Shown: piece after piece, positions 1-8,228 of the stretch
How the letters are laid out: each line of letters begins with the position of its first letter
Numbering within the stretch: the first letter of the stretch is position 1
IMG/VR virus record: IMGVR_UViG_2675903352_000011
Span: 1-8,228 of that record
Strand: one strand, 5' to 3'
Length of the DNA: 8,228 bases
From: a virus
Taxonomy: Duplodnaviria > Heunggongvirae > Uroviricota > Caudoviricetes
The notes under the pieces: model-generated
What the model saw: the letters and a program-made list of their open reading frames with translations, nothing else
Database searches by the model: none
Told to the model about the DNA's origin: nothing
Translations under genes and position numbers: made by a program

Positions 1-154
1 TAACGAGGAAAGACCTCTGCGAGGTACGAATCCGAACCGGCCAGACGGAGGTCGCTGTCTTCACAGCTTACGAACCTGAGGAGTAAGAGACCCGGCGAGG
101 GAGAAATCCCTCGCCACCTCTGATGTGGCAGGCATCCTCAACGCACCCGCACTT

Positions 155-181
155 AACCCGCTTCGGCGGGTTTTTGTTTTT
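155..181 (+). terminator. Rho-independent terminator (GC stem, UUCG tetraloop, T-tract)
   Basis: Seen in sequence: aacccgc / ttcg / gcgggtt stem-loop at 155-172 followed by tttttgtttttatttt. Upstream 100-122 holds a second hairpin (gcgaggga gaaa tccctcgc). No ORF is listed in 1-300. Confidence 0.6.
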
Positions 182-302
182 ATTTTCAACGCGTTTGAAG
201 ATCTGGACGGTGCCGGAATAGAATCAAAAATACTTAAGTAGCGCGCAGGGATAAGAGGGATGGTCCCTTAAAGGGGAGAGCTAATTATCCGGAAGGATTC
301 TG

Positions 303-554
303 ATGATGAACATCGAAGAACTGCGTAAAATTTTTTGTGAAGATGGCCTCTATGCTGTGTGCGTTGAAAATGGAAATCTTGTTAGTCATTACCGCATTAT
401 GTGTTTGCGAAAGAATGGGGCTGCGTTAATTAATTTTGTGGATGGTCGAGTGACAGACGGATTTATCTTGCGCGAAGGTGAGTTTGTCACTTCATTACAG
501 GCACTGAAAGAGATCGGAATAAAAGCAGGCTTTTCAGCTTTTGCAGAAGAATAA
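303..554 (+). CDS. Hypothetical prophage protein, 83 aa, family not recognised
   Basis: ORF with ATG start at 303 preceded by a Shine-Dalgarno-like ggaagga about 6 nt upstream. Translation is protein-like and not low-complexity. I cannot assign a family from memory. Confidence 0.55.
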   Translation: MMNIEELRKIFCEDGLYAVCVENGNLVSHYRIMCLRKNGAALINFVDGRVTDGFILREGEFVTSLQALKEIGIKAGFSAFAEE

Positions 555-620
555 ACTCATCTACAATCTTGCGCGGGGCTGAACTCCCGCTGAGTAACAC
601 CGTGCCACCGGAGAAAACCG

Positions 621-899
621 ATGGCACGCAACGTAAAATATTACAATTCTGATAATTCGCCCGTTCTTGCCTGCACGCACGAGCGGTATTCTCACGCATT
701 CAAGTCTGAATGGTTCCAGCACCCTCCATGCACTGAAGAGCAGGCTGAATGGATAATTCAGTGTTACCGCAGGCGCGGATACGAGGTTAAGAAAGCTCTT
801 AGTCTCGACTACCGTCACTGGATAATCTCAGTCAGATTGCCTTACTCCGAACGCCCATCGCGTCCGTCCCGTACATTCCAGCAACGCATCTGGAGGTAA
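621..899 (+). CDS. Hypothetical prophage protein, 92 aa; possibly the N-terminal fragment of a disrupted longer gene
   Basis: ATG at 621 with GGAG about 8 nt upstream. Same frame as the 1053..1922 ORF; separated from it by a ~150 nt segment that is open only in the +1 frame (901..1098). May be an independent small gene or part of a frameshifted gene. Confidence 0.4.
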   Translation: MARNVKYYNSDNSPVLACTHERYSHAFKSEWFQHPPCTEEQAEWIIQCYRRRGYEVKKALSLDYRHWIISVRLPYSERPSRPSRTFQQRIWR

Positions 900-1052
900 C
901 GTGCGGGTATTACTTCGACCTGTTCTGGTACCGGAACTCGGGCTGGTGGTCGTTAAGCCGGGCCGTGAATCCATGCCGGTATTCCACAATACCCGGGTAC
1001 TGGTGGAGCCGGAACCGAAAAGCATGCGTAATCTGCCGTCCGCCAGCCGCTG

Positions 1053-1922
1053 GTGGAAGACAAAACATTGCTGCCGTTTTTCAGTAACGCACGGGTAATT
1101 CGTGCTGCTGGTGCATTGTCTGACTGGCTGTTGCGCCATATTAAATCCTGCCAGTGGCCACACGGCGATTATCATCACAGCGAAACCGTTATTCACCGTT
1201 ATGGTACCGGCGCAATGGTGTTGTGCTGGCACTGCGACAACCAGCTGCGTGACCAGACATCCGAATCACTCGAGCAACTTGCTCATCAAAACCTGTCAGC
1301 ATGGATGATTGACGTCATCGGTCACGCAATAAGCGGTACGCAGGAGCGTGAATTATCTCTGGCTGAATTATCCTGGTGGGCGGTCCGCAATCAGGTGGCG
1401 GACGCGTTACCGGAAGCGGTATTACGTCGCTCGCTGGGATTACCAGCGGAAAAAAACTGCTCGGTGTACCGCGAAAGCGACATCGTACCGGGAGAGCAGA
1501 CCGCCACCAGCATATTGAAACAGCGCACAAAAAATCTTGCACCGTTGCCTCACGCCCACCAGCAACAAAACCCATCACAGGAAAAGACGGTGGTAAGCAT
1601 CACCGTTGATCCAGAGTCTCCGGAATCTTTCATGAAGCTGCCTAAACGTCACCGTTGGGTTAAGGAGAAATACACACGCTGGGTTAAGACACAGCCGTGT
1701 GCTTGCTGCGGTATGCCAGCCGACGATCCGCATCATCTGATTGGTCACGGGCAGGGCGGAATGGGAACCAAAGCACATGATCTCTTTGTGTTGCCTTTGT
1801 GCAGAAAGCATCACGACGAGTTGCATACGGATACCGTGGCATTTGAAGAGAAGTATGGCTCCCAACTGGAGCTGATTTTTCGATTTATCGATCGCGCGCT
1901 GGCAATTGGTGTGCTGGCCTAA
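1053..1922 (+). CDS. DUF968-type prophage protein (YdfU-like) with C-terminal HNH-like Cys/His motif
   Basis: 289-aa ORF. C-terminal region [22 protein letters not shown]...[10 protein letters not shown] has paired Cys and His-His motifs typical of HNH-like zinc fingers. Position immediately upstream of Q matches nin-region genes of lambdoid prophages. The start is uncertain: the listed start is GTG, and frame-0 is open from 1032. Confidence 0.6.
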
Positions 1923-1939
1923 TTTTGTGGAGTAAGTTG

Positions 1940-2317
1940 ATGCGTGATATTCAGATGGTTCTTGAGCGTTGGGGGGCATGGGCGGCTAATAATCATGAAG
2001 ATGTGACCTGGTCGTCCATTGCCGCCGGTTTTAAGGGATTAATTCCTTCAAAAGTAAGATCTCGTCCGCAATGCTGTGACGATGACGCGATGATCATTTG
2101 TGAATGTATGGCTCGCCTGAAAAAAAACAACAGCGATTTACATGATTTATTGGTGGACTATTATGTCGGCGGCATGACTTTTATGGCGCTTGCACGTAAG
2201 CATGGGCGATCTGATTGTTGGGTTGGCAGGATGCTCCAGAAAGCTGAGGGCGTAGTGGAGGGCATGCTGATGGTGTTGGATCTCCGATTGGAGATGGATG
2301 CTGATTGTTCGAAATAA
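1940..2317 (+). CDS. quuD: Late-gene antiterminator Q (phage 82 / DLP12 QuuD-like)
   Basis: Translation [24 protein letters not shown]...[18 protein letters not shown]... matches my memory of the short Q antiterminator of DLP12-type prophages. ATG at 1940 with GGAG about 9 nt upstream (the ORF track starts at an upstream TTG at 1925). Followed by a short promoter-terminator region as expected for PR'-tR'. Confidence 0.8.
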
Positions 2318-2359
2318 TTAAAGGAAAAGTTGCTGTCTGATTTTCATTAGTCTAACATT

Positions 2360-2400
2360 TTAAATGTTGGAATCGCAACGTAGTTATTATCATATAACAG
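2360..2400 (+). promoter_or_regulatory. Candidate late promoter PR' with Q-utilisation region (approximate)
   Basis: Inference from position directly downstream of Q and upstream of a strong terminator. Weak sigma70-like elements: ttggaa at 2367-2372 and tatcat at 2388-2393 (spacing is a short 15 nt); tcatat at 2390-2395 is an alternative. Exact hexamers and TSS cannot be fixed by eye. Confidence 0.3.
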
Positions 2401-2415
2401 CTTGTTTCCTGATTT

Positions 2416-2446
2416 AGCCAGCCTCCCCAAAGGCTGGTTTTTTCTA
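2416..2446 (+). terminator. Rho-independent terminator (tR'-like)
   Basis: Seen in sequence: agccagcc / tccccaaa / ggctgg hairpin followed by ttttttc. Lies about 100 nt downstream of the Q stop. On the minus strand the hairpin is not followed by a U-tract, so it is mainly a + strand terminator. Confidence 0.65.
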
Positions 2447-2471
2447 ATAAGTATCATTTCGGGTGGGGATT

Positions 2472-2996
2472 TTATTGTTTAACCCATAATAGTTCATTGA
2501 CATTGAATCCCAACTTTTGAGCGGTACGCACATAGTCTGCTTTTACATTATCTGGAATAGTTTGGGTCCTTGCCAGAATCCATAGGTATTCTCTGTTCGG
2601 ACCACTGACAAGAGCATACTTATACTCATCATCCAGTTTGATTACATTATAGCCACCATAGAAGGGGCCAAAAAACGAAACTTTCAACGCTGCAGTTTTA
2701 GTATCTCCAGTAAAGTATGCTTTACCTTCGCTCTCGCTCCATTTGTTTTTCGTTGGATCGTATCCACGGTTAAGTACGCGAATCCCTCCGTCGTTCCGTT
2801 TTTCATAAGTAGCGCTGACCTGTTCCAGACCACGTTCGAACCAGTTCTCGAGGCGAGCTATTTCATACCATTTTCCGAGGTAGCGGTTGGCGTCAAAATT
2901 TGTAATCGGCTGCACACCTTTAGGTGGTGTCGGGGCCTTACATGCTATAAGAGTGAAAGAGAGTGCAATGCCAGTCAACACAGGCCATAACTTCAT
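2472..2996 (-). CDS. blc: Bacterial lipocalin (Blc-like) outer-membrane lipoprotein
   Basis: 174-aa translation with signal peptide and lipobox (MKLWPVLTGIALSFTLIAC, Cys followed by K at +2, not an Asp Lol-avoidance signal). Strong resemblance to E. coli Blc motifs: NFDANRYLGKWYEIARLENWFERGLEQVSATY, KAYFTGD..AALKVSFFGPFYGGYNVI, YLWILART. AGGA Shine-Dalgarno 6-8 nt upstream of the ATG on the minus strand. Opposite orientation to the late operon. Confidence 0.85.
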   Translation of the reverse strand: MKLWPVLTGIALSFTLIACKAPTPPKGVQPITNFDANRYLGKWYEIARLENWFERGLEQVSATYEKRNDGGIRVLNRGYDPTKNKWSESEGKAYFTGDTKTAALKVSFFGPFYGGYNVIKLDDEYKYALVSGPNREYLWILARTQTIPDNVKADYVRTAQKLGFNVNELLWVKQ

Positions 2997-3188
2997 AATA
3001 AATCCTGTACTTTTGATAGTTGAGAGTAAGTATGAAAGATAGATGAGTACGACCGATCACTTAAAGAACTTTCCTACTATATTAGGAATAGTCAATAACA
3101 GAAAAATTGTCAGTGATGAAGCCAGAAAGGCAATTTAGTCCGTGCACTACAAAGTTTATGTGTTAATGAATTAGTCAAGGGGGAGGAA

Positions 3189-4148
3189 ATGATAAAAAAA
3201 CCTGTGATTGGGATCAGCGGTTGTTTGGGCGGTTCTGCTGTTCGTTTTGATGGTGGTCACAAAAGAGATGACTTTTTAATGGACAAATTAGTGGAATGGG
3301 TAACATTCAGACCAGTATGTCCGGAAATGGCTATAGGGCTGCCAGTTCCGCGTCCTGCTCTACGACTTGTGCGCTCGAAGCAAGGAAATATACGGATGTG
3401 TTTCAGCCACGACCAGAATGAGGATGTGACAGAGAGAATGACAGAGTTTAGTCGTTCTTATATGGACAAATTAAAGGATGTATCGGGGTTTGTGGTTTGT
3501 GCTAAATCTCCCAGCTGTGGCATGGAGCGCGTGCGTGTCTATGATGAAAATGGTAATCGAGGTCGTAAAGATGGAGTGGGACTATTTACGAGCACTTTGA
3601 TGGAAAAGTTTTCCTGGCTACCGGTTGAAGAGGATGGGCGATTACATGATCCAGTGCTTCGTGAGAATTTTATTGAAAGAGTTTTTGCTTTGCATGAGCT
3701 CAATCACCTTTACAAGGAGAAATTATCAAGAAGAGAGTTATTAGCTTTTCATAGTCGTTATAAGCTTCAGTTGTTGGCGCATAGCCAGGCAGGCTATAAA
3801 GATATGGGACCATTTGTGGCTGCAATACACGAGTGGGCGGACCTTGAATCATACTTTGAGGTGTATCGTGATAATCTGATGGCGATTCTCAGAAAACCAG
3901 CATCACGTAAAAATCACACGAATGTGCTGATGCATATACAGGGGTATTTTAGTAATTACTTAAGTACACGCCAGCGTAAAGAGTTGAGCGAGGTTATACT
4001 TAACTATCGCTTTGGCACATTGCCTCTTCTTGCGCCGTTGACTCTGCTGAAGCATTATCTGGGTGAGTATCCTAATGATTACTTGCTTACACAGAATTAC
4101 TTCGATCCCTATCCGGAAGAACTGGCTCTAAGACTGATGGTGAATTAA
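3189..4148 (+). CDS. DUF523-DUF1722 fusion protein (TudS-like, putative [4Fe-4S] thiouracil/thiouridine desulfidase family)
   Basis: 319 aa. N-terminal PVIGISGCLGGSAVRFDGGHKRD is a DUF523-type motif. Cysteines at about positions 12, 44 and 104 fit the three-Cys ligand pattern I recall for TudS-type DUF523 proteins. The C-terminal half (AFHSRYKLQLLAHSQAGYKDMG...) resembles DUF1722. Strong RBS gggggagg about 5 nt upstream of the ATG. Confidence 0.7.
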   Translation: MIKKPVIGISGCLGGSAVRFDGGHKRDDFLMDKLVEWVTFRPVCPEMAIGLPVPRPALRLVRSKQGNIRMCFSHDQNEDVTERMTEFSRSYMDKLKDVSGFVVCAKSPSCGMERVRVYDENGNRGRKDGVGLFTSTLMEKFSWLPVEEDGRLHDPVLRENFIERVFALHELNHLYKEKLSRRELLAFHSRYKLQLLAHSQAGYKDMGPFVAAIHEWADLESYFEVYRDNLMAILRKPASRKNHTNVLMHIQGYFSNYLSTRQRKELSEVILNYRFGTLPLLAPLTLLKHYLGEYPNDYLLTQNYFDPYPEELALRLMVN

Positions 4149-4545
4149 CTGTATGCGATATCATCTGAAAGTGATGAGTTCCTGTATGCAGGATATTTAC
4201 AATCGTAAAAACTACGCTATGATGCTCATAGTGTCAGTTTTTATAAAAATCCTGTTCACGCTAAAGAAAACATTGAGATGCAATTTAATGTTGGTAAACA
4301 TACCAGCCCCAAAAGATTTTATTCAATCTGTTTTTATATGAAGATATTTCAAGTGAATATTAAGAGCATATAATATTATTATTGCACGCAGCTATTATAA
4401 TATAACAGATTAGTTTAATGATTTGTTTTTTGTGAGTTAAACACATGGTTTTATAGTTGTGATGCAATGAGATTTTCCTTATTGTTGAACTGGCGAATAT
4501 TGATTTTCCACCTATACTTACCTGGTGTAACCCCAATGATATCAG

Positions 4546-5268
4546 GTGGATAATATGCCATACATATGTTCTATCATTTTGGTGTTGAACTCGTTTGGTG
4601 TCCGAATTGGTAAAGAAGATATTTTGTTTAAAAAAGGAAATGCTGTTCTCATTGAATACAATTTAAAAGATCTTTTTTCGTCAAATACAGATCATCTAAT
4701 GATCGTAGATGTTGAGGAGAAAACAGTTAATGATTTCTTTAAAAACTACACACTCTCACCTTTTTCTGTAAGAAGGTTTTATCCGTCATACTTTATAGTA
4801 GAATGTGAAGATTTTTCATTGTTAAAGAACTTGGTTGCATGCTTGAATTGTGATAGCAAAACCGTGGATGTAGTTAGAAATCAAATATCACTTGCATGTC
4901 TTGCTGTCTTATCTTCAGAGAAAATAGTGCAAAGTTTTTTGTTCGGAAGTCTTAATAGCTTAGGTTGTAAAGTTAAGGCTATTATTCACTCGGATATCTC
5001 AGCGTCATGGAGACTTTGTGATATATCTTCAAGATTATATATGAGCGAGAGTTTGTTAAAAAGAAAATTAAAAGATGAAGGATTATCGTTTAGTAAATTA
5101 ATTCTTGAAGAACGAATGATGATGGCGCAAAGATTATTGATCTACAGTAACCATACTGTCGGCAAGGTGGCGGGAATATGCGGGTATGACAATGCATCAT
5201 ATTTTGTAAGTGTTTTTAGAGGATATTTTGGTGTGCCTCCGCACCAATATTTATCAAGATTTTCTTAG
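4546..5268 (+). CDS. AraC-family transcriptional regulator (AppY / YdeO / PatE-like prophage regulator)
   Basis: 240 aa. C-terminal AraC-type HTH signature (SESLLKRKLKDEGLSFSKLILEERMMMAQRLLIYSNHTVGKVAGICGYDNASYFVSVFRGYFGVPPHQY). N-terminus MDNMPYICSIILVLNSFG... resembles the AppY-like subgroup. Very AT-rich gene and upstream region. Start could be M1 or M4. Confidence 0.8.
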   Translation: MDNMPYICSIILVLNSFGVRIGKEDILFKKGNAVLIEYNLKDLFSSNTDHLMIVDVEEKTVNDFFKNYTLSPFSVRRFYPSYFIVECEDFSLLKNLVACLNCDSKTVDVVRNQISLACLAVLSSEKIVQSFLFGSLNSLGCKVKAIIHSDISASWRLCDISSRLYMSESLLKRKLKDEGLSFSKLILEERMMMAQRLLIYSNHTVGKVAGICGYDNASYFVSVFRGYFGVPPHQYLSRFS

Positions 5269-5336
5269 AAGATATGATGTGATGGCATTTTATAAAGTTA
5301 TTTTTTGAAGTGTAAGATTATACGATATTTTTAGCT

Positions 5337-5369
5337 ACGCCAGAATAATTGCTGGCGTTTTTCTTTTTG
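5337..5369 (+). terminator. Rho-independent terminator downstream of the AraC-family gene
   Basis: Seen in sequence: acgccag / aataattg / ctggcg hairpin followed by tttttctttttg. Confidence 0.6.
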
Positions 5370-5458
5370 AATAGATGTTCGGGCCTTACGCTAATGTAAC
5401 TTCTTTCCTTCTTCGAACCAAACCGTGTACACCATCCGTTATCTGCGGAGGTGAGGCT

Positions 5459-5674
5459 ATGAAATCCATGGATAAGTTAACAACGGGCATCGCCTACAGC
5501 ACCTCTGCAGGCAGTGCTGGCTACTGGTTTTTACAGTTGCTCGATAAAGTCACGCCCTCACAGTGGGCGGCAATAGGTGTATTGGGTAGTCTGGTATTTG
5601 GCATGCTGACGTATCTGACAAACCTTTATTTCAAGATTAAAGAAGACAGGCGTAAGGTTGCGAGAAGAGAGTAA
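5459..5674 (+). CDS. essD: Class II holin / pinholin (S21, EssD-like) with dual-start motif
   Basis: 71 aa: [71 protein letters not shown]. Near-identical to my memory of phage 21 S / DLP12 EssD. Met-Lys-Ser-Met dual start is typical of the antiholin/holin pair. Two TM segments and a charged C-terminal tail. ggaggtgagg Shine-Dalgarno directly upstream. The ORF-track extension to 5375 is rejected. Confidence 0.9.
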
Positions 5675-5678
5675 TCCA

Positions 5679-6410
5679 ATGACTCAAGACTATGAACTGG
5701 TTGTGAAAGGAGTTCGCAATTTTGAGAATAAAGTGGCGGTAACTGTAGCCTTACGGGACAAAAAACACTTTGACGGTGAAATTTTTGACCTGGACATCTC
5801 GCTGGACCGTGTTGAAGGTGCCGCGCTGGAGTTTTATGAGGCAGCAGCCAGAATGAGCGTCAGGCAGGTCCTCCTGGGAGTGGCAGAAAAATTGTCAGAA
5901 AAAGTTGAGTCTTATCTGCAGCATCAGTACTCCATTGAGATTGAAAATTCTGCCAATAAACACGATCGTCCTCATCTTGCGGGTTTTGATAGTGCAGTTA
6001 AAGCCAACACCAGGCGCGCAGGGCAGGAAAAAAACGTCGGGGATGACATAAGTCGTGCGGTGGTTACTGTAGAGTTTCCAGGGCATATGGCATCAAGAGA
6101 GAAAGTCGGGAAAGGTGGTGCTCCTGTGCTGACGAAAAGAATCGGCAGCAAGGTCAGTGTCTGGCTTGATAATGAAGAAATGTTGTCGGTTATGTACAAG
6201 GAAGACTACGACCCGAAAACAACGTTCAGCGACTATGAAGCGAGAGCAAAAAAGTATGCCTTGTTGATAGTTGCCGCGATGCGAGCCGTAAATGAGCGAC
6301 AACGCCACCACGAAAATGGGGTGGCGTTTGTTGCTAAAGCTGTTCAGCAAACTATTGATGGTATGACGACGAAGTTTCTTCAGGAATTAAAATTGTCTCA
6401 GCAAGAGTAA
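5679..6410 (+). CDS. Unknown-function protein (243 aa) inserted between holin and endolysin
   Basis: ATG at 5679, 4 nt after the holin stop, suggesting co-transcription or translational coupling with the late lysis operon. The ORF-track start at 5658 is a TTG inside the holin gene. No family recognised; no obvious TM segments; no nuclease, NTPase or HTH motif I can identify by eye. Confidence 0.6.
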   Translation: MTQDYELVVKGVRNFENKVAVTVALRDKKHFDGEIFDLDISLDRVEGAALEFYEAAARMSVRQVLLGVAEKLSEKVESYLQHQYSIEIENSANKHDRPHLAGFDSAVKANTRRAGQEKNVGDDISRAVVTVEFPGHMASREKVGKGGAPVLTKRIGSKVSVWLDNEEMLSVMYKEDYDPKTTFSDYEARAKKYALLIVAAMRAVNERQRHHENGVAFVAKAVQQTIDGMTTKFLQELKLSQQE

Positions 6411-6633
6411 CGCATGATTCGGCAATCAATTTGTTCATTTCGTCTAAAACTTCCTGCGGGGTTTCCAGGGATTCGGGTAATTTTATTGATGAAAAAGTGT
6501 TAGCTGATTTAGTAAGCAAATCTTTAATAATTGCTTTTTTCTCATCTGGTAAAGCGTTAACTAGGAGTATGACAACCTGTCTGATGGCCAGAATATCAGC
6601 AAAAGCTTTTTTAGATAAATAAGTATCGCTCAT
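6352..6633 (-). CDS. Unknown-function small protein (93 aa), convergent to and 3'-overlapping the 243-aa gene
   Basis: ATG (minus) at 6633 with AAGGA Shine-Dalgarno about 4-5 nt upstream. Translation MSDTYLSKKAFADILAIRQVVILLVNALPDEKKAIIKDLL... is helical and charged, not antisense junk. Very AT-rich. Last ~19 codons overlap the 3' end of the + strand 243-aa gene (6352-6410). Confidence 0.5.
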   Translation of the reverse strand: MSDTYLSKKAFADILAIRQVVILLVNALPDEKKAIIKDLLTKSANTFSSIKLPESLETPQEVLDEMNKLIAESCVTLAETILIPEETSSSYHQ

Positions 6634-6759
6634 ATGTTGTCCTTACTGTTTGTTCTGTGATCTTCACATTGTCAGTATTACCCCTGCGAGGAACTACCTG
6701 CCGGGCTGAGTACTAAACATATCCAGGGTTCAGGAACCGATAAATCCTGATAAATATCC

Positions 6760-7293
6760 ATGAACGTAAAAATCAAATACGGCCTGTCAGCTGCCGTTCT
6801 GGCGCTGATTGCTGCAGGCGCGTCTGCTCCTCAAATACTTGACCAGTTTCTGGATGAAAAAGAAGGTAACCACACAACGGCATACCGTGATGGTTCTGGC
6901 ATATGGACCATCTGTCGTGGTGCCACAATGGTGGATGGTAAGCCCGTCATACCGGGAATGAAGCTGTCGAAGGAAAAATGCGACCAGGTTAACGCTATTG
7001 AACGTGATAAGGCGCTGGCATGGGTGGATCGCAATATAAAAGTACCACTGACCGAACCACAAAAAGCAGGTATTGCGTCATTTTGTCCCTATAACATTGG
7101 CCCCGGTAAGTGTTTCCCGTCGACGTTTTATAAGCGGCTGAATGCCGGTGATCGTAAAGGCGCATGCGAGGCGATTCGCTGGTGGATTAAGGACGGTGGC
7201 CGTGATTGCCGCATTCGTTCAAATAACTGTTACGGTCAGGTTATTCGTCGTGACCAGGAGAGTGCGCTGGTGTGCTGGGGGATCGACAGATAA
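6760..7293 (+). CDS. rrrD: SAR endolysin (T4-lysozyme-like muramidase, RrrD / R21-like)
   Basis: 177 aa. N-terminal signal-anchor-release domain YGLSAAVLALIAAGASAP (Gly/Ala-rich, weakly hydrophobic). Catalytic E...D...T spacing matches T4 lysozyme (E-9-D-6-T in EGNHTTAYRDGSGIWT). Closely matches my memory of DLP12 RrrD. Pairing with a pinholin is the established S21/R21 arrangement. Confidence 0.9.
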   Translation: MNVKIKYGLSAAVLALIAAGASAPQILDQFLDEKEGNHTTAYRDGSGIWTICRGATMVDGKPVIPGMKLSKEKCDQVNAIERDKALAWVDRNIKVPLTEPQKAGIASFCPYNIGPGKCFPSTFYKRLNAGDRKGACEAIRWWIKDGGRDCRIRSNNCYGQVIRRDQESALVCWGIDR

Positions 7294-7383
7294 GCAGAAT
7301 ATTTTGCTGAAAAATGCCGTTTGCTCACACAAGCGGATAACACGATATTCTGCAAACTGGCAAAAGGAAGTGAATAAAAGCAA

Positions 7384-7420
7384 AAACCCCGTTTGTTGGC
7401 AGCAAGCGGGGTTTTGTTTT
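7384..7420. terminator. Bidirectional rho-independent terminator between endolysin and Rz
   Basis: Seen in sequence: (aaaa)ccccgtttg / ttggcag / caagcgggg (9-bp stem with one U-G pair) flanked by an A-tract upstream and ttttgtttt downstream, so it reads as a terminator on both strands. Confidence 0.6.
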
Positions 7421-7449
7421 CTGCCCATGGGAAAGCTAAAGGAGAAAAC

Positions 7450-7587
7450 GTGTTTGATTTTAGCAAACCGATTCTGGAGATTCGAGTGATGGCTGAAAAA
7501 TTATCCACCTGGAAGTTCATCCTTATCTGGCTGGTGTTTGTGGTTATGGGCTCCGGTTATTTCATCGGTCAGATACGCTGGTGGTGA
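7450..7587 (+). CDS. Possible small single-pass membrane peptide (45 aa from GTG 7450, or 32 aa from ATG 7489)
   Basis: In-frame GTG at 7450 preceded by ggagaaaac; alternative ATG at 7489 preceded by ggagattcgag. Encodes ...MAEKLSTWKFILIWLVFVVMGSGYFIGQIRWW with one clear hydrophobic helix. Stop TGA at 7585-7587 abuts the Rz ATG at 7589. Could instead be a non-coding remnant. Confidence 0.3.
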   Translation: MFDFSKPILEIRVMAEKLSTWKFILIWLVFVVMGSGYFIGQIRWW

Positions 7588-7588
7588 A

Positions 7589-8053
7589 ATGAACCGGATT
7601 CTGTATGGCGTGATTATTGTCCTGCTGATGGTCTGTAGTGCTCTGTGGCTGGCAACAGATCATTACCGCGATAACGCCATTACCTACAAAACACAACGCG
7701 ATGACAATGCCAGAGAGCTGAAACTGGCAGAGGCGATCATTACTGATATGCAGGTGCGCCAGCGTGACGTTGCTGCACTCGATGCAAAATATTCAAAGGA
7801 ATTAGCTGATGCGAAAGCTGAAAATGATGCTCTGCGTGATGATATTGCCGCTGGTCGTCGTCGGTTGCGCATCAGAGCAGTCTGTCCAGCCGTGCGTGAA
7901 GCCACCGCCTCCTCCGGCGTGGATGATGCAACCAGCCCCCGACTGGCAGACACCGCTGAACGGGATTATTTCACCCTCAGAGACCGATTGATGACGATGC
8001 AGAAGCAACTGGAAGGGGCACAGCTATACATTCGTGAGCAATGCCTCAGATAA
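7589..8053 (+). CDS. rzpD: Spanin inner-membrane subunit Rz (i-spanin, RzpD-like)
   Basis: 154 aa from ATG 7589: MNRILYGVIIVLLMVCSALWLATDHYRDNAITYKTQRDDNARELKLAEAIITDMQ... N-terminal TM anchor plus coiled-coil periplasmic domain, strong resemblance to lambda/DLP12 Rz. The ORF-track start at 7538 is rejected because it lacks an RBS and overlaps the upstream peptide ORF. Confidence 0.85.
   Translation: MNRILYGVIIVLLMVCSALWLATDHYRDNAITYKTQRDDNARELKLAEAIITDMQVRQRDVAALDAKYSKELADAKAENDALRDDIAAGRRRLRIRAVCPAVREATASSGVDDATSPRLADTAERDYFTLRDRLMTMQKQLEGAQLYIREQCLR
7809..7991 (+). CDS. rzoD: Spanin outer-membrane lipoprotein subunit Rz1 (o-spanin, RzoD-like), embedded in the +1 frame of Rz
   Basis: 60 aa: MRKLKMMLCVMILPLVVVGCASEQSVQPCVKPPPPPAWMMQPAPDWQTPLNGIISPSETD. 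Lipobox LVVVGC and a proline-rich segment. Lies entirely within the Rz coding region in a different frame, the classic Rz/Rz1 arrangement. Confidence 0.85.
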   Translation: MRKLKMMLCVMILPLVVVGCASEQSVQPCVKPPPPPAWMMQPAPDWQTPLNGIISPSETD

Positions 8054-8228
8054 AAACCGGCCAAGGATAATCCGCTGAAGATTTGCCGGCGGCGAAAGAG
8101 AGCCAAGGGTTCAGCCTACGCCATTACTCCTGTCGATGCAATGCATTGTATGGGGCCACCACATATTGCAATTTTTGTGCTCTCTTAAAATATATTCCAC
8201 GGGTGTCATTAGCGCGAGCGCCTTATGG

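Follow-up and report, generated by a model that had tools for sequence, protein, structure and literature searches.

The question raised by this locus is why two genes on opposite strands lie between the holin and endolysin genes of a lambdoid lysis cassette. The locus is part of an 8,228-nucleotide (nt) stretch of Caudoviricetes DNA (IMG/VR virus record IMGVR_UViG_2675903352_000011, positions 1 to 8,228), hereafter the window, which gene order and Pfam matches assigned to the late region of a Qin/phage 21-like lambdoid prophage. The two genes encode a protein of 243 amino acids (aa) on the + strand and a protein of 93 aa on the - strand. A first-pass annotation, made from the sequence alone, could place neither protein in a family and proposed that the two were accessory cargo. 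Our analysis makes it highly probable that the interval carries a mobile accessory cassette of two genes, which has become part of a phage 21/Qin-type lysis cassette by fusion into its ydfR slot. It is well supported that the long product is a two-domain late protein of the YdfR family and that the 93-aa protein is the usual type of partner for phrog_11851-type genes. Such genes were found in three unrelated phage neighbourhoods, almost always with a convergent partner, and their C-terminal tails and partners are exchanged jointly. These observations are new, and no publication on the convergent pair or on cassette exchange was found in the literature.

Organization of the holin-endolysin interval

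The interval and its flanking lysis genes are laid out as follows, in coordinates of the window.

5459-5674, + strand: class II (phage 21-type) pinholin with the MKSM dual-start motif (PF04971 Phage_holin_2_1, E = 3e-34; phrog_9876 and phrog_20 holin)
5679-6410, + strand: 243-aa YdfR-family fusion protein, ATG at 5679
5679-5975, + strand: residues 1-99 of that protein, DUF1327/YdfR domain and a short helix (PF07041; identity to YdfR)
5976-6056, + strand: residues 100-126, linker predicted at low confidence (predicted local distance difference test score, pLDDT, 30-40)
6057-6407, + strand: residues 127-243, second domain, a beta-sheet/helix core ("B") and a helical tail ("D") (phrog_11851)
6059-6265: 207-bp (69-codon) segment of core B, deleted in frame in 174-aa forms (E. 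coli JP538 and others)
6352-6633, - strand: 93-aa convergent partner protein (phrog_2572)
6352-6410: 59-nt overlap of the 3' ends of the two convergent open reading frames (ORFs)
6634-6759: 126-nt spacer from partner start to endolysin start
6640-6645, - strand: Shine-Dalgarno sequence TAAGGA, 6 nt ahead of the 93-aa ATG (from sequence)
6760-7293, + strand: signal-arrest-release (SAR) endolysin (PF00959 Phage_lysozyme, E = 1e-24)

The pinholin stop codon (TAA, 5672-5674) is followed after a 4-nt gap by the ATG of the 243-aa ORF, and the endolysin gene starts 1,085 nt after the holin stop. All coordinates of the first-pass annotation (pinholin stop at 5674, endolysin start at 6760, both ORF starts, the 4-nt gap, and the ribosome-binding site of the small gene) were confirmed; the 59-nt overlap had gone unremarked. 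Its premise that holin and endolysin genes abut was right for phages 434, 1W, and ev017, but not for K-12 Qin, mEp460, YYZ-2008, and the Shiga toxin 1 (Stx1) phages, in which a ydfR-type gene separates the two. In K-12 Qin, ydfR lies between essQ (holin) and rrrQ (lysozyme), and the Qin-type records listed have the order essD-ydfR-rrrQ, several of them with lipocalin, YbgA, and AraC genes upstream. A gene between holin and endolysin is thus the norm in Qin-like prophages and not the anomaly that it had been taken for.

Domain structure of the 243-aa protein

Residues 1-93 of the 243-aa protein cover the full PF07041 model (E = 4e-45; 152.3 bits against a cut-off of 25), and residues 1-99 are 86% identical to residues 1-99 of E. 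coli K-12 YdfR. The gene also lies where YdfR-family genes are found in lambdoid (pro)phages, with a class II holin gene on one side and a phage lysozyme gene on the other. It departs from the single-domain prototype of about 100 aa, although the annotated family does include mosaic forms of 174 to 328 aa. Profile and position class the locus as a YdfR/DUF1327 member, atypical in having two domains plus a partner. Confident matches of both ORFs to well-characterised families, for example a DUF1327-type lysis-cassette protein, had been named in advance as telling against an undescribed system; a DUF1327 match was indeed found, but this family is catalogued rather than well characterised, so that the objection applies only in part.

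K-12 YdfR (b1555, Qin) and the window gene occupy the same slot between a class II holin (essQ/essD) and rrrQ, and the lipocalin-YbgA-AraC-holin context of the window recurs in Qin-like prophages. In contrast, K-12 YdfR is a single-domain protein of 103 aa without a convergent partner; the short Qin gene ends ...RPH-HKYL-stop, and its stop overlaps the endolysin ATG (as ATGA). The window gene continues for 143 further residues into the second domain and is followed by the 93-aa gene and the 126-nt spacer. By alignment, approximately 771 bp (about 5976-6746) are present in the window but not in the short ydfR of K-12/Qin, and the sequence absent from the short form begins at the first base of the linker (5976). 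That the short K-12 ydfR is the same locus minus the cassette is well supported.

The C-terminal half, which the first-pass annotation had also left unplaced, matched the phrog_11851 profile of PHROG at residues 130-225 (E = 5e-12), and a custom hidden Markov model (HMM) built from standalone relatives matched across residues 127-242 (E = 4.5e-31). Tblastn searches and alignments also linked this domain to standalone homologues in phages FSL SP-016, SW-37, and HK633. The domain carries the motif V.V.FP ... IG..V.V ... Y.ED..P..T...Y..RA..YA and is rare, with only 8 representative clusters in 1.84 billion proteins. As a standalone phage protein (100-126 aa) it has three kinds of neighbourhood. 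In E. coli prophages its gene lies upstream of a holin gene of another type, in siphoviruses of Salmonella and E. coli (FSL SP-016, SW-37) it comes immediately after the tape-measure gene, and in HK633-like phages it is downstream of Rz/KilA-N. The HK633 ORF (39561-39896; L172 1698-2033) is without annotation in the deposited record. A distant 267-aa protein (P0148) has a weak DUF1327-like N-terminus and a phrog_11851 domain at its C-terminus; a repetitive 676-aa match (P0147) was rejected as spurious.

A strand-strand-strand-helix order is predicted for both the DUF1327 domain and the second domain, and the two align in a consistent register around the motif (T)LE.Y.a.A+, in all cases at sub-threshold significance (hhalign E = 0.001-0.002, probability 12-20%; HMM domain E = 0.04-0.7). 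It is only possible that the two are homologous through an internal duplication. The whole protein appears soluble (maximum 19-residue Kyte-Doolittle hydropathy of 0.81), and the hydropathy scan found no membrane-spanning segment.

The convergent 93-aa gene

The 93-aa protein, likewise called unplaceable at first, matched phrog_2572 over its full length (E = 4e-39; residues 1-93 against positions 1-86 of the 86-position model). It is acidic (isoelectric point 4.7), and AlphaFold2 predicted a three-helix bundle (mean pLDDT 73, helices 73-84). When membrane-spanning segments like those of holin/antiholin-type lysis regulators were looked for, helix 1 proved strongly hydrophobic, with a 19-residue hydropathy of 1.91, although D13, R18, Q19, and N26 form a polar stripe on it; the corresponding values for homologous partners are lower (0.9-1.7). 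The low guanine-cytosine (GC) content remarked on earlier was borne out, at 0.33-0.38 over 6350-6650 compared to 0.44-0.52 on either side. The "DUF1823" label of the partner in PhiR5_1 was rejected because the match was sub-threshold (13 bits against a cut-off of 25).

The ORF was open in 81 of 81 copies gathered via the small protein and intact in every carrying locus of two IMG/VR locus sets. Homologues of 86-88 aa, 38-40% identical, occupy the same convergent position, with all insertions and deletions in frame. Between the two subtypes, the BLOSUM local score was 154 for the 93-aa frame compared to 77 for the opposite-strand frame. The ATG and the strong Shine-Dalgarno sequence are conserved across cassette types, changes within the 93-aa gene show an excess at third positions (16 of 30), and the ratio of nonsynonymous to synonymous substitution rates (dN/dS) is approximately 0.4. 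Both the NCBI Prokaryotic Genome Annotation Pipeline (PGAP) and phage annotators call the ORF a gene. These data indicate that the 93-aa ORF is most likely a real gene.

The contrary explanation, that the ORF is not a gene and owes its conservation to a function of the + strand (an RNA, or a 63-aa ORF at 6431-6622) or to linkage, draws on the failure to find a promoter or terminator and on the + frame, which is open in all copies of both subtypes. Third codon positions of the 63-aa frame and the 93-aa frame coincide, so codon periodicity cannot assign the coding strand. However, the start codon of the 63-aa ORF is not conserved and its score between subtypes is half that of the 93-aa frame, whereas the 93-aa ORF has stayed intact with in-frame indels between subtypes only 38% identical, keeps its start and Shine-Dalgarno sequence in every cassette type, has the low dN/dS and predicted three-helix fold given above, and is called by annotators. 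We regard this explanation as extremely unlikely. The overlap region folded as RNA was no more stable than its shuffles (z = -0.35), and Rfam gave no match within the insert (5679-6760).

On the + strand at 6301-6337 is a 9-bp GC-rich hairpin (AACGCCACC...GGTGGCGTT) followed by TTTGTTGCT. It lies inside the region coding for the C-terminal tail, 15-50 nt past the stop of the 93-aa gene, and was missed by the terminator scan because its loop is 10 nt.

Recurrence of the gene pair and joint exchange of tail and partner

A search with the small protein returned 80 viral loci, and in approximately 75 of them its gene is convergent to a long DUF1327 gene between holin and endolysin. The overlap between partners in E. 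coli is 59 nt for the 93-aa subtype and 53 nt for the 86-aa subtype, and the other cassette types range from a 38-nt gap up to a 92-nt overlap. Convergent small ORFs were also found downstream of the standalone second-domain genes of FSL SP-016 (73 aa), SW-37 (70 aa), and HK633 (81 aa). Only that of HK633 is annotated (gp65); the FSL SP-016 ORF (L005 2789-3010) is without annotation in the deposited record, and when tried as a homologue of the 93-aa protein it did not reach significance.

IMG/VR loci were then retrieved with the second-domain alignment (73 loci), and 71 domain genes were scored for a partner, defined as a free-standing convergent ORF of 60-130 aa at the 3' end of the domain gene. 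Such a partner was present for 70 of the 71 domain genes compared to 4 of 143 other + strand genes in the same loci (Fisher p = 2e-50), the loci being not phylogenetically independent and comprising at least 10 distinct cassette types. The proposal that the two genes form an accessory module is upheld by this recurrence.

Within each context, the core of the domain and the flanks are constant, while the partner ORF varies jointly with the C-terminal tail that follows the ...EAAQ.Q.A helix. One tail/partner type (tail ...FEG..NVT, partner ...FPPLQR...) occurs in both the tail-cluster and the HK633-type contexts. Eight partner types fall in one family (the 93-aa protein, the 86-aa subtype, SW-37, and those of loci L209, L212, L215, L223, and L224), and they come from E. 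coli prophages, the HK633-type late-region group, and Salmonella siphoviruses. Pairwise phmmer comparisons among these linked partners gave E values of 5e-15 to approximately 4e-3, a profile from the partner alignment found the L212 partner (E = 2e-13), and the eight-type profile recovered its own members (E = 1e-19 to 4e-29). All partner types are PHROGs of unknown function.

AAGGA-type Shine-Dalgarno sequences are universal among the partner types, often with a CCTCTG box ahead of them. A CCTCTG(G/A)(A/T)AAGGA-like box is common to partner genes otherwise without detectable homology and is absent from the leader in the window. This box, an anti-Shine-Dalgarno-like CCTC plus the Shine-Dalgarno sequence, was seen upstream of the partner ATG in L177, L209, L210, L218, L224, L226, L231, L235, and L239. 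Charge complementarity between partner and domain, tried as a common rule, was not general over the cassette types.

The pairs in HK633 (ORF and gp65), FSL SP-016 (SP016_00105 and the 73-aa ORF), and SW-37 resemble that of the window in having the same domain with a variable helical tail and, at its 3' end, a convergent helical ORF of 60-100 aa with a strong Shine-Dalgarno sequence. They differ in that the domain is standalone and lies by tape-measure/tail genes or past Rz/KilA-N, whereas in the window it is fused to YdfR within a lysis cassette. The loci of 2H10 (gp52), PhiR5_1 ("DUF1327"/"DUF1823"), and the prophages of CFT073, APEC O1, and S88 have the same slot, the convergent overlap, and a partner 38-40% identical to the 93-aa protein. 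In these long forms of the 86-aa subtype, however, the C-terminal part has a different sequence, with no detectable match to phrog_11851.

Two unrelated inserts could also have become neighbours solely through a recombination hot spot at the 3' end of this gene family, with no functional link between them. The region is indeed highly mosaic, with forms of 103, 174, 206, 243, 176/183/211, and 268-328 aa, not all partner types are homologous, the boundary sequence upstream of the endolysin gene also occurs upstream of a different holin, and one locus retains only a truncated partner. A hot spot of this kind nevertheless does not fit a pair that recurs in three neighbourhoods (between holin and endolysin, behind the tape-measure gene, and behind Rz/KilA-N), the enrichment of partners at domain genes over other genes, homologous partners across contexts, or the pairing of the same tail type with the same partner type. 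We therefore consider chance adjacency distinctly unlikely and favor a cassette that moves as a unit.

The locus with the truncated partner (L169, 696-844) has a standalone second-domain gene upstream of a different holin, then a remnant of the 93-aa gene (residues 54-93, 95% identical). It also has the same sequence of approximately 40 nt that precedes the endolysin gene in the window. Remnant and boundary are evidence of cassette transfer between lysis-cassette types.

At the downstream boundary, stops occur in all three + frames at 6741-6763, no more than 20 nt before the endolysin ATG or across it (TAA at 6741; TGA at 6748, then TAA at 6751; TGA at 6761 inside ATGA). No Shine-Dalgarno sequence was found at a normal distance from the endolysin start, and the 126-nt spacer, which is kept between both E. 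coli subtypes, has no consensus promoter. This junction looks like a frame-independent coupling site that tolerates exchange of the upstream module.

Distribution and mosaic forms

Almost all E. coli genomes carry YdfR/DUF1327 genes, which lie within lysis cassettes of lambdoid and Stx prophages. Sequence similar to the holin-endolysin region of the window was detected in 5,164 of the 5,426 complete E. coli genomes. The full 243-aa form was absent from all 5,426; the second-domain core was found in 6, the 93-aa gene in 7, and the related 86-aa gene in 314, so that the subtype in the window is rare and its relative common. E. coli JP538, MS8345, and AR_0089 are strains that carry the 93-aa subtype. 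Cluster members include Escherichia albertii, and the scan of species-representative genomes gave one locus only, in Enterobacter.

The forms were counted in the 80 IMG/VR loci nearest to the DUF1327 domain of the window. The 103-aa form accounted for 75 of these, the identical 243-aa plus 93-aa arrangement for 3, and a 174-aa form with the 93-aa gene (in-frame deletion of 6059-6265) for 2. A fourth contig with the identical arrangement was found via the 93-aa protein, giving 4 IMG/VR contigs. YdfR-family proteins share their N-terminal 75-100 residues or so and then continue into alternative C-terminal modules, with total lengths that include 103, 174, 176, 183, 206, 211, 243, 268, 296, and 328 aa. 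Partners of 86-88 aa stand behind YdfR-family genes of 176-211 aa in 2H10, PhiR5_1, and the prophages of CFT073, APEC O1, and S88. The Qin form without the 771-bp segment and the rarity of the 93-aa subtype support the first-pass proposal that the segment is variable cargo.

PGAP labels two intact DUF1327 ORFs as pseudogenes "missing C-terminus", cut at residue 99 (L001 6252-6776 and L170 1130-1426). The ORFs so mislabelled are the 174-aa form in JP538 and the LR-45 form, and the call at residue 99 hides the extra domain from annotation.

Lysis control and exclusion as alternative functions

A role in lysis timing, proposed at first, would make the pair an accessory that acts on the pinholin, the SAR endolysin, or their mRNAs. 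The gene lies within the lysis cassette 4 nt past the holin stop, other holin types have standalone copies of the second domain immediately upstream, and a genetic screen tied ydfR to envelope integrity (cited in PMC13232886). However, phages 21/434, 1W, and ev017 have no gene in this slot, the same pair, apart from any holin, adjoins tape-measure/tail genes and follows Rz, the 243-aa protein lacks a membrane segment, and the envelope phenotype of ydfR could be a polar effect on rrrQ. The timing proposal is weakened by these findings, and we consider it very unlikely.

The pair could instead protect the lysogen as an exclusion, defence, or immunity-like system, in which the small protein made by the prophage would recognise the cognate tail of a superinfecting phage's late protein or neutralise a harmful late protein. 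The locus would then be a specificity cassette under diversifying selection. This idea gains from the variability of the segment as cargo, the many alternative tails and partners within conserved flanks, the likeness of an AT-rich small gene on the opposite strand to a moron (an accessory phage gene insert), and the moron-like slot that the cassette fills right after the tape-measure gene in tail clusters. It loses from the PADLOC-DB v2 searches, in which neither window protein (E <= 10) nor any of seven relatives (E <= 1) had a match, from the lack of toxin, nuclease, or membrane domains and of a promoter for the small gene in our searches, and from the hydrophobic helix of the partner, which is under the transmembrane level in most types. 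As part of late operons, the larger gene would not be expressed in the lysogen. On balance an exclusion function is unlikely, and the defence or toxin/immunity placement suggested by the first-pass annotation was not sustained.

In toxin-antitoxin and polymorphic toxin-immunity cassettes, a variable C-terminal region is swapped along with a small adjacent cognate gene. The locus shares this joint exchange with them, but its genes are convergent rather than in an operon, and the variable tail is only 10-45 aa. The locus is unlike a type II toxin-antitoxin system in its convergent genes and in having no Pfam/NCBIfam domain besides DUF1327, and unlike a type I system in that each gene codes for a protein, the 243-aa product is without a hydrophobic segment, and the insert lacks an Rfam match.

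Among the databases searched, NCBIfam matched neither protein and Pfam gave DUF1327 only. No toxin, antitoxin, nuclease, or DNA-binding domain was found in either protein with Pfam/NCBIfam. PDB sequence searches with both proteins and with the partner and second-domain profiles returned nothing under E = 0.04, and fold searches gave generic or weak matches only, none informative. Neither protein fits a characterised family; their Pfam/PHROG families are catalogued, and PGAP labels them "hypothetical".

A possible late RNase E-directed factor with a matched partner

We found one mention of DUF1327 and one functional paper on ydfR in the literature, and the sole reported activity of YdfR is the RNase E binding described in that 2026 paper. 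A two-hybrid screen baited with RNase G yielded K-12 YdfR, whose binding to RNase E 1-597 was then demonstrated in two-hybrid and pull-down assays (PMC13232886). YdfR also co-purifies with RNase E 1-598, its residues 1-72 are sufficient, and RNA is recovered along with it (PMC13232886, RNA Biol 2026). The essQ-ydfR-rrrQ cluster is silent in standard growth (PMC13232886). The window protein is 86% identical to K-12 YdfR in the region that binds RNase E (residues 1-72).

These observations suggest a mechanism that we hold only tentatively, namely a late RNase E/RNA-directed factor with a tail-specific partner. The 243-aa protein would be made late, from the Q-dependent late transcript, alongside holin and endolysin; the 4-nt gap after the holin stop is consistent with late co-expression, and the gene is suitably positioned for the late lysis-gene expression that the first-pass annotation had assumed. 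Its YdfR domain would engage the catalytic half of host RNase E and/or RNA, and this contact would tune the fate of RNA late in infection without being part of the lysis machinery. The second domain may contribute a further binding function. The small protein would bind the variable C-terminal tail of its own partner and modulate or neutralise it, and such matching of tail and partner would explain their joint exchange as cassettes. As the small gene is transcribed against the late operon, it is expected only when late transcription is off (in the lysogen or in early infection), and convergent late transcription together with the 59-nt antisense overlap may silence it. We infer RNase E binding by the 243-aa protein, the binding of tail to partner, and the timing of the partner alike.

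T4 Srd, T7 gp0.7, and phiKZ Dip are phage-encoded modulators of RNase E. Any likeness to them would be a functional analogy only, that of a phage protein contacting host RNase E as reported for YdfR.

Several results weigh against the account of a matched pair with an RNase E-directed late factor. The partners of HK633 (gp65) and FSL SP-016 (the 73-aa ORF) and four other types (including L210, L218, and L239) have no detectable homology to the 93-aa protein, and YdfR-family forms with other C-termini (206 and 268-328 aa) have no partner. Some of the linkage between tail and partner is trivial, given that the genes overlap or adjoin. Neither the window nor phage 2H10 nor any of 13 cassette types gave sigma-70 promoter or terminator signals for the small gene above shuffled controls, and expression of both genes is a prediction from sequence. 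Overexpression of K-12 ydfR altered few transcripts (PMC13232886), so any effect on RNase E would be subtle or conditional.

Taken as a whole, the cassette with this mechanism is the best explanation of the locus that we have, plausible although short of probable. A broader proposal, which we find rather doubtful at present, is that DUF1327-like/phrog_11851 proteins with exchangeable tails and cognate convergent helical partners constitute an undescribed mobile specificity-cassette system. Enterobacterial temperate phages could carry such a system in lysis, tail, or late-region slots, and it could act either as a late RNase E/RNA effector with an antidote or regulator to match or as an exclusion device specific to its type. 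If the pair is functional, it would represent a new type of two-gene accessory module for temperate phages, and it might be the first factor of lambdoid phages directed at RNase E; without a function, the locus would be ordinary mosaic cargo. The mosaic family, a C-terminal domain that is an independent phage family, and a convergent gene that co-varies with the tail offer testable handles.

Neighbouring genes and additional observations

The remaining features of the window are listed below.

1053-1922: DUF968 gene
1925-2317: antiterminator Q
2472-2996, - strand: lipocalin (cargo cluster)
3189-4148: YbgA (2-thiouracil desulfurase/DUF1722; cargo cluster)
4546-5268: AraC-type regulator (cargo cluster; very AT-rich, GC content approximately 0.31)
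7586-8053: Rz
7809-7991: Rz1, embedded in Rz

The lipocalin-YbgA-AraC cargo (2472-5268) lies between antiterminator Q and the holin gene, and the same cluster is present in E. coli Qin-like prophages. A hairpin resembling a terminator, with a T-run, occupies 5337-5368 (+ strand) after the AraC gene and shortly before the holin gene, and late transcription would need to read through it. Two sub-threshold Rfam matches were also seen on the + strand. One, to isrK, is at 95-176 (25.7 bits against a gathering score of 50). The other, to a "toxic small RNA (sRNA)" family, is at 2403-2446 (27 bits against a gathering score of 50) and directly follows the Q gene, the expected place of the late-promoter leader and terminator.

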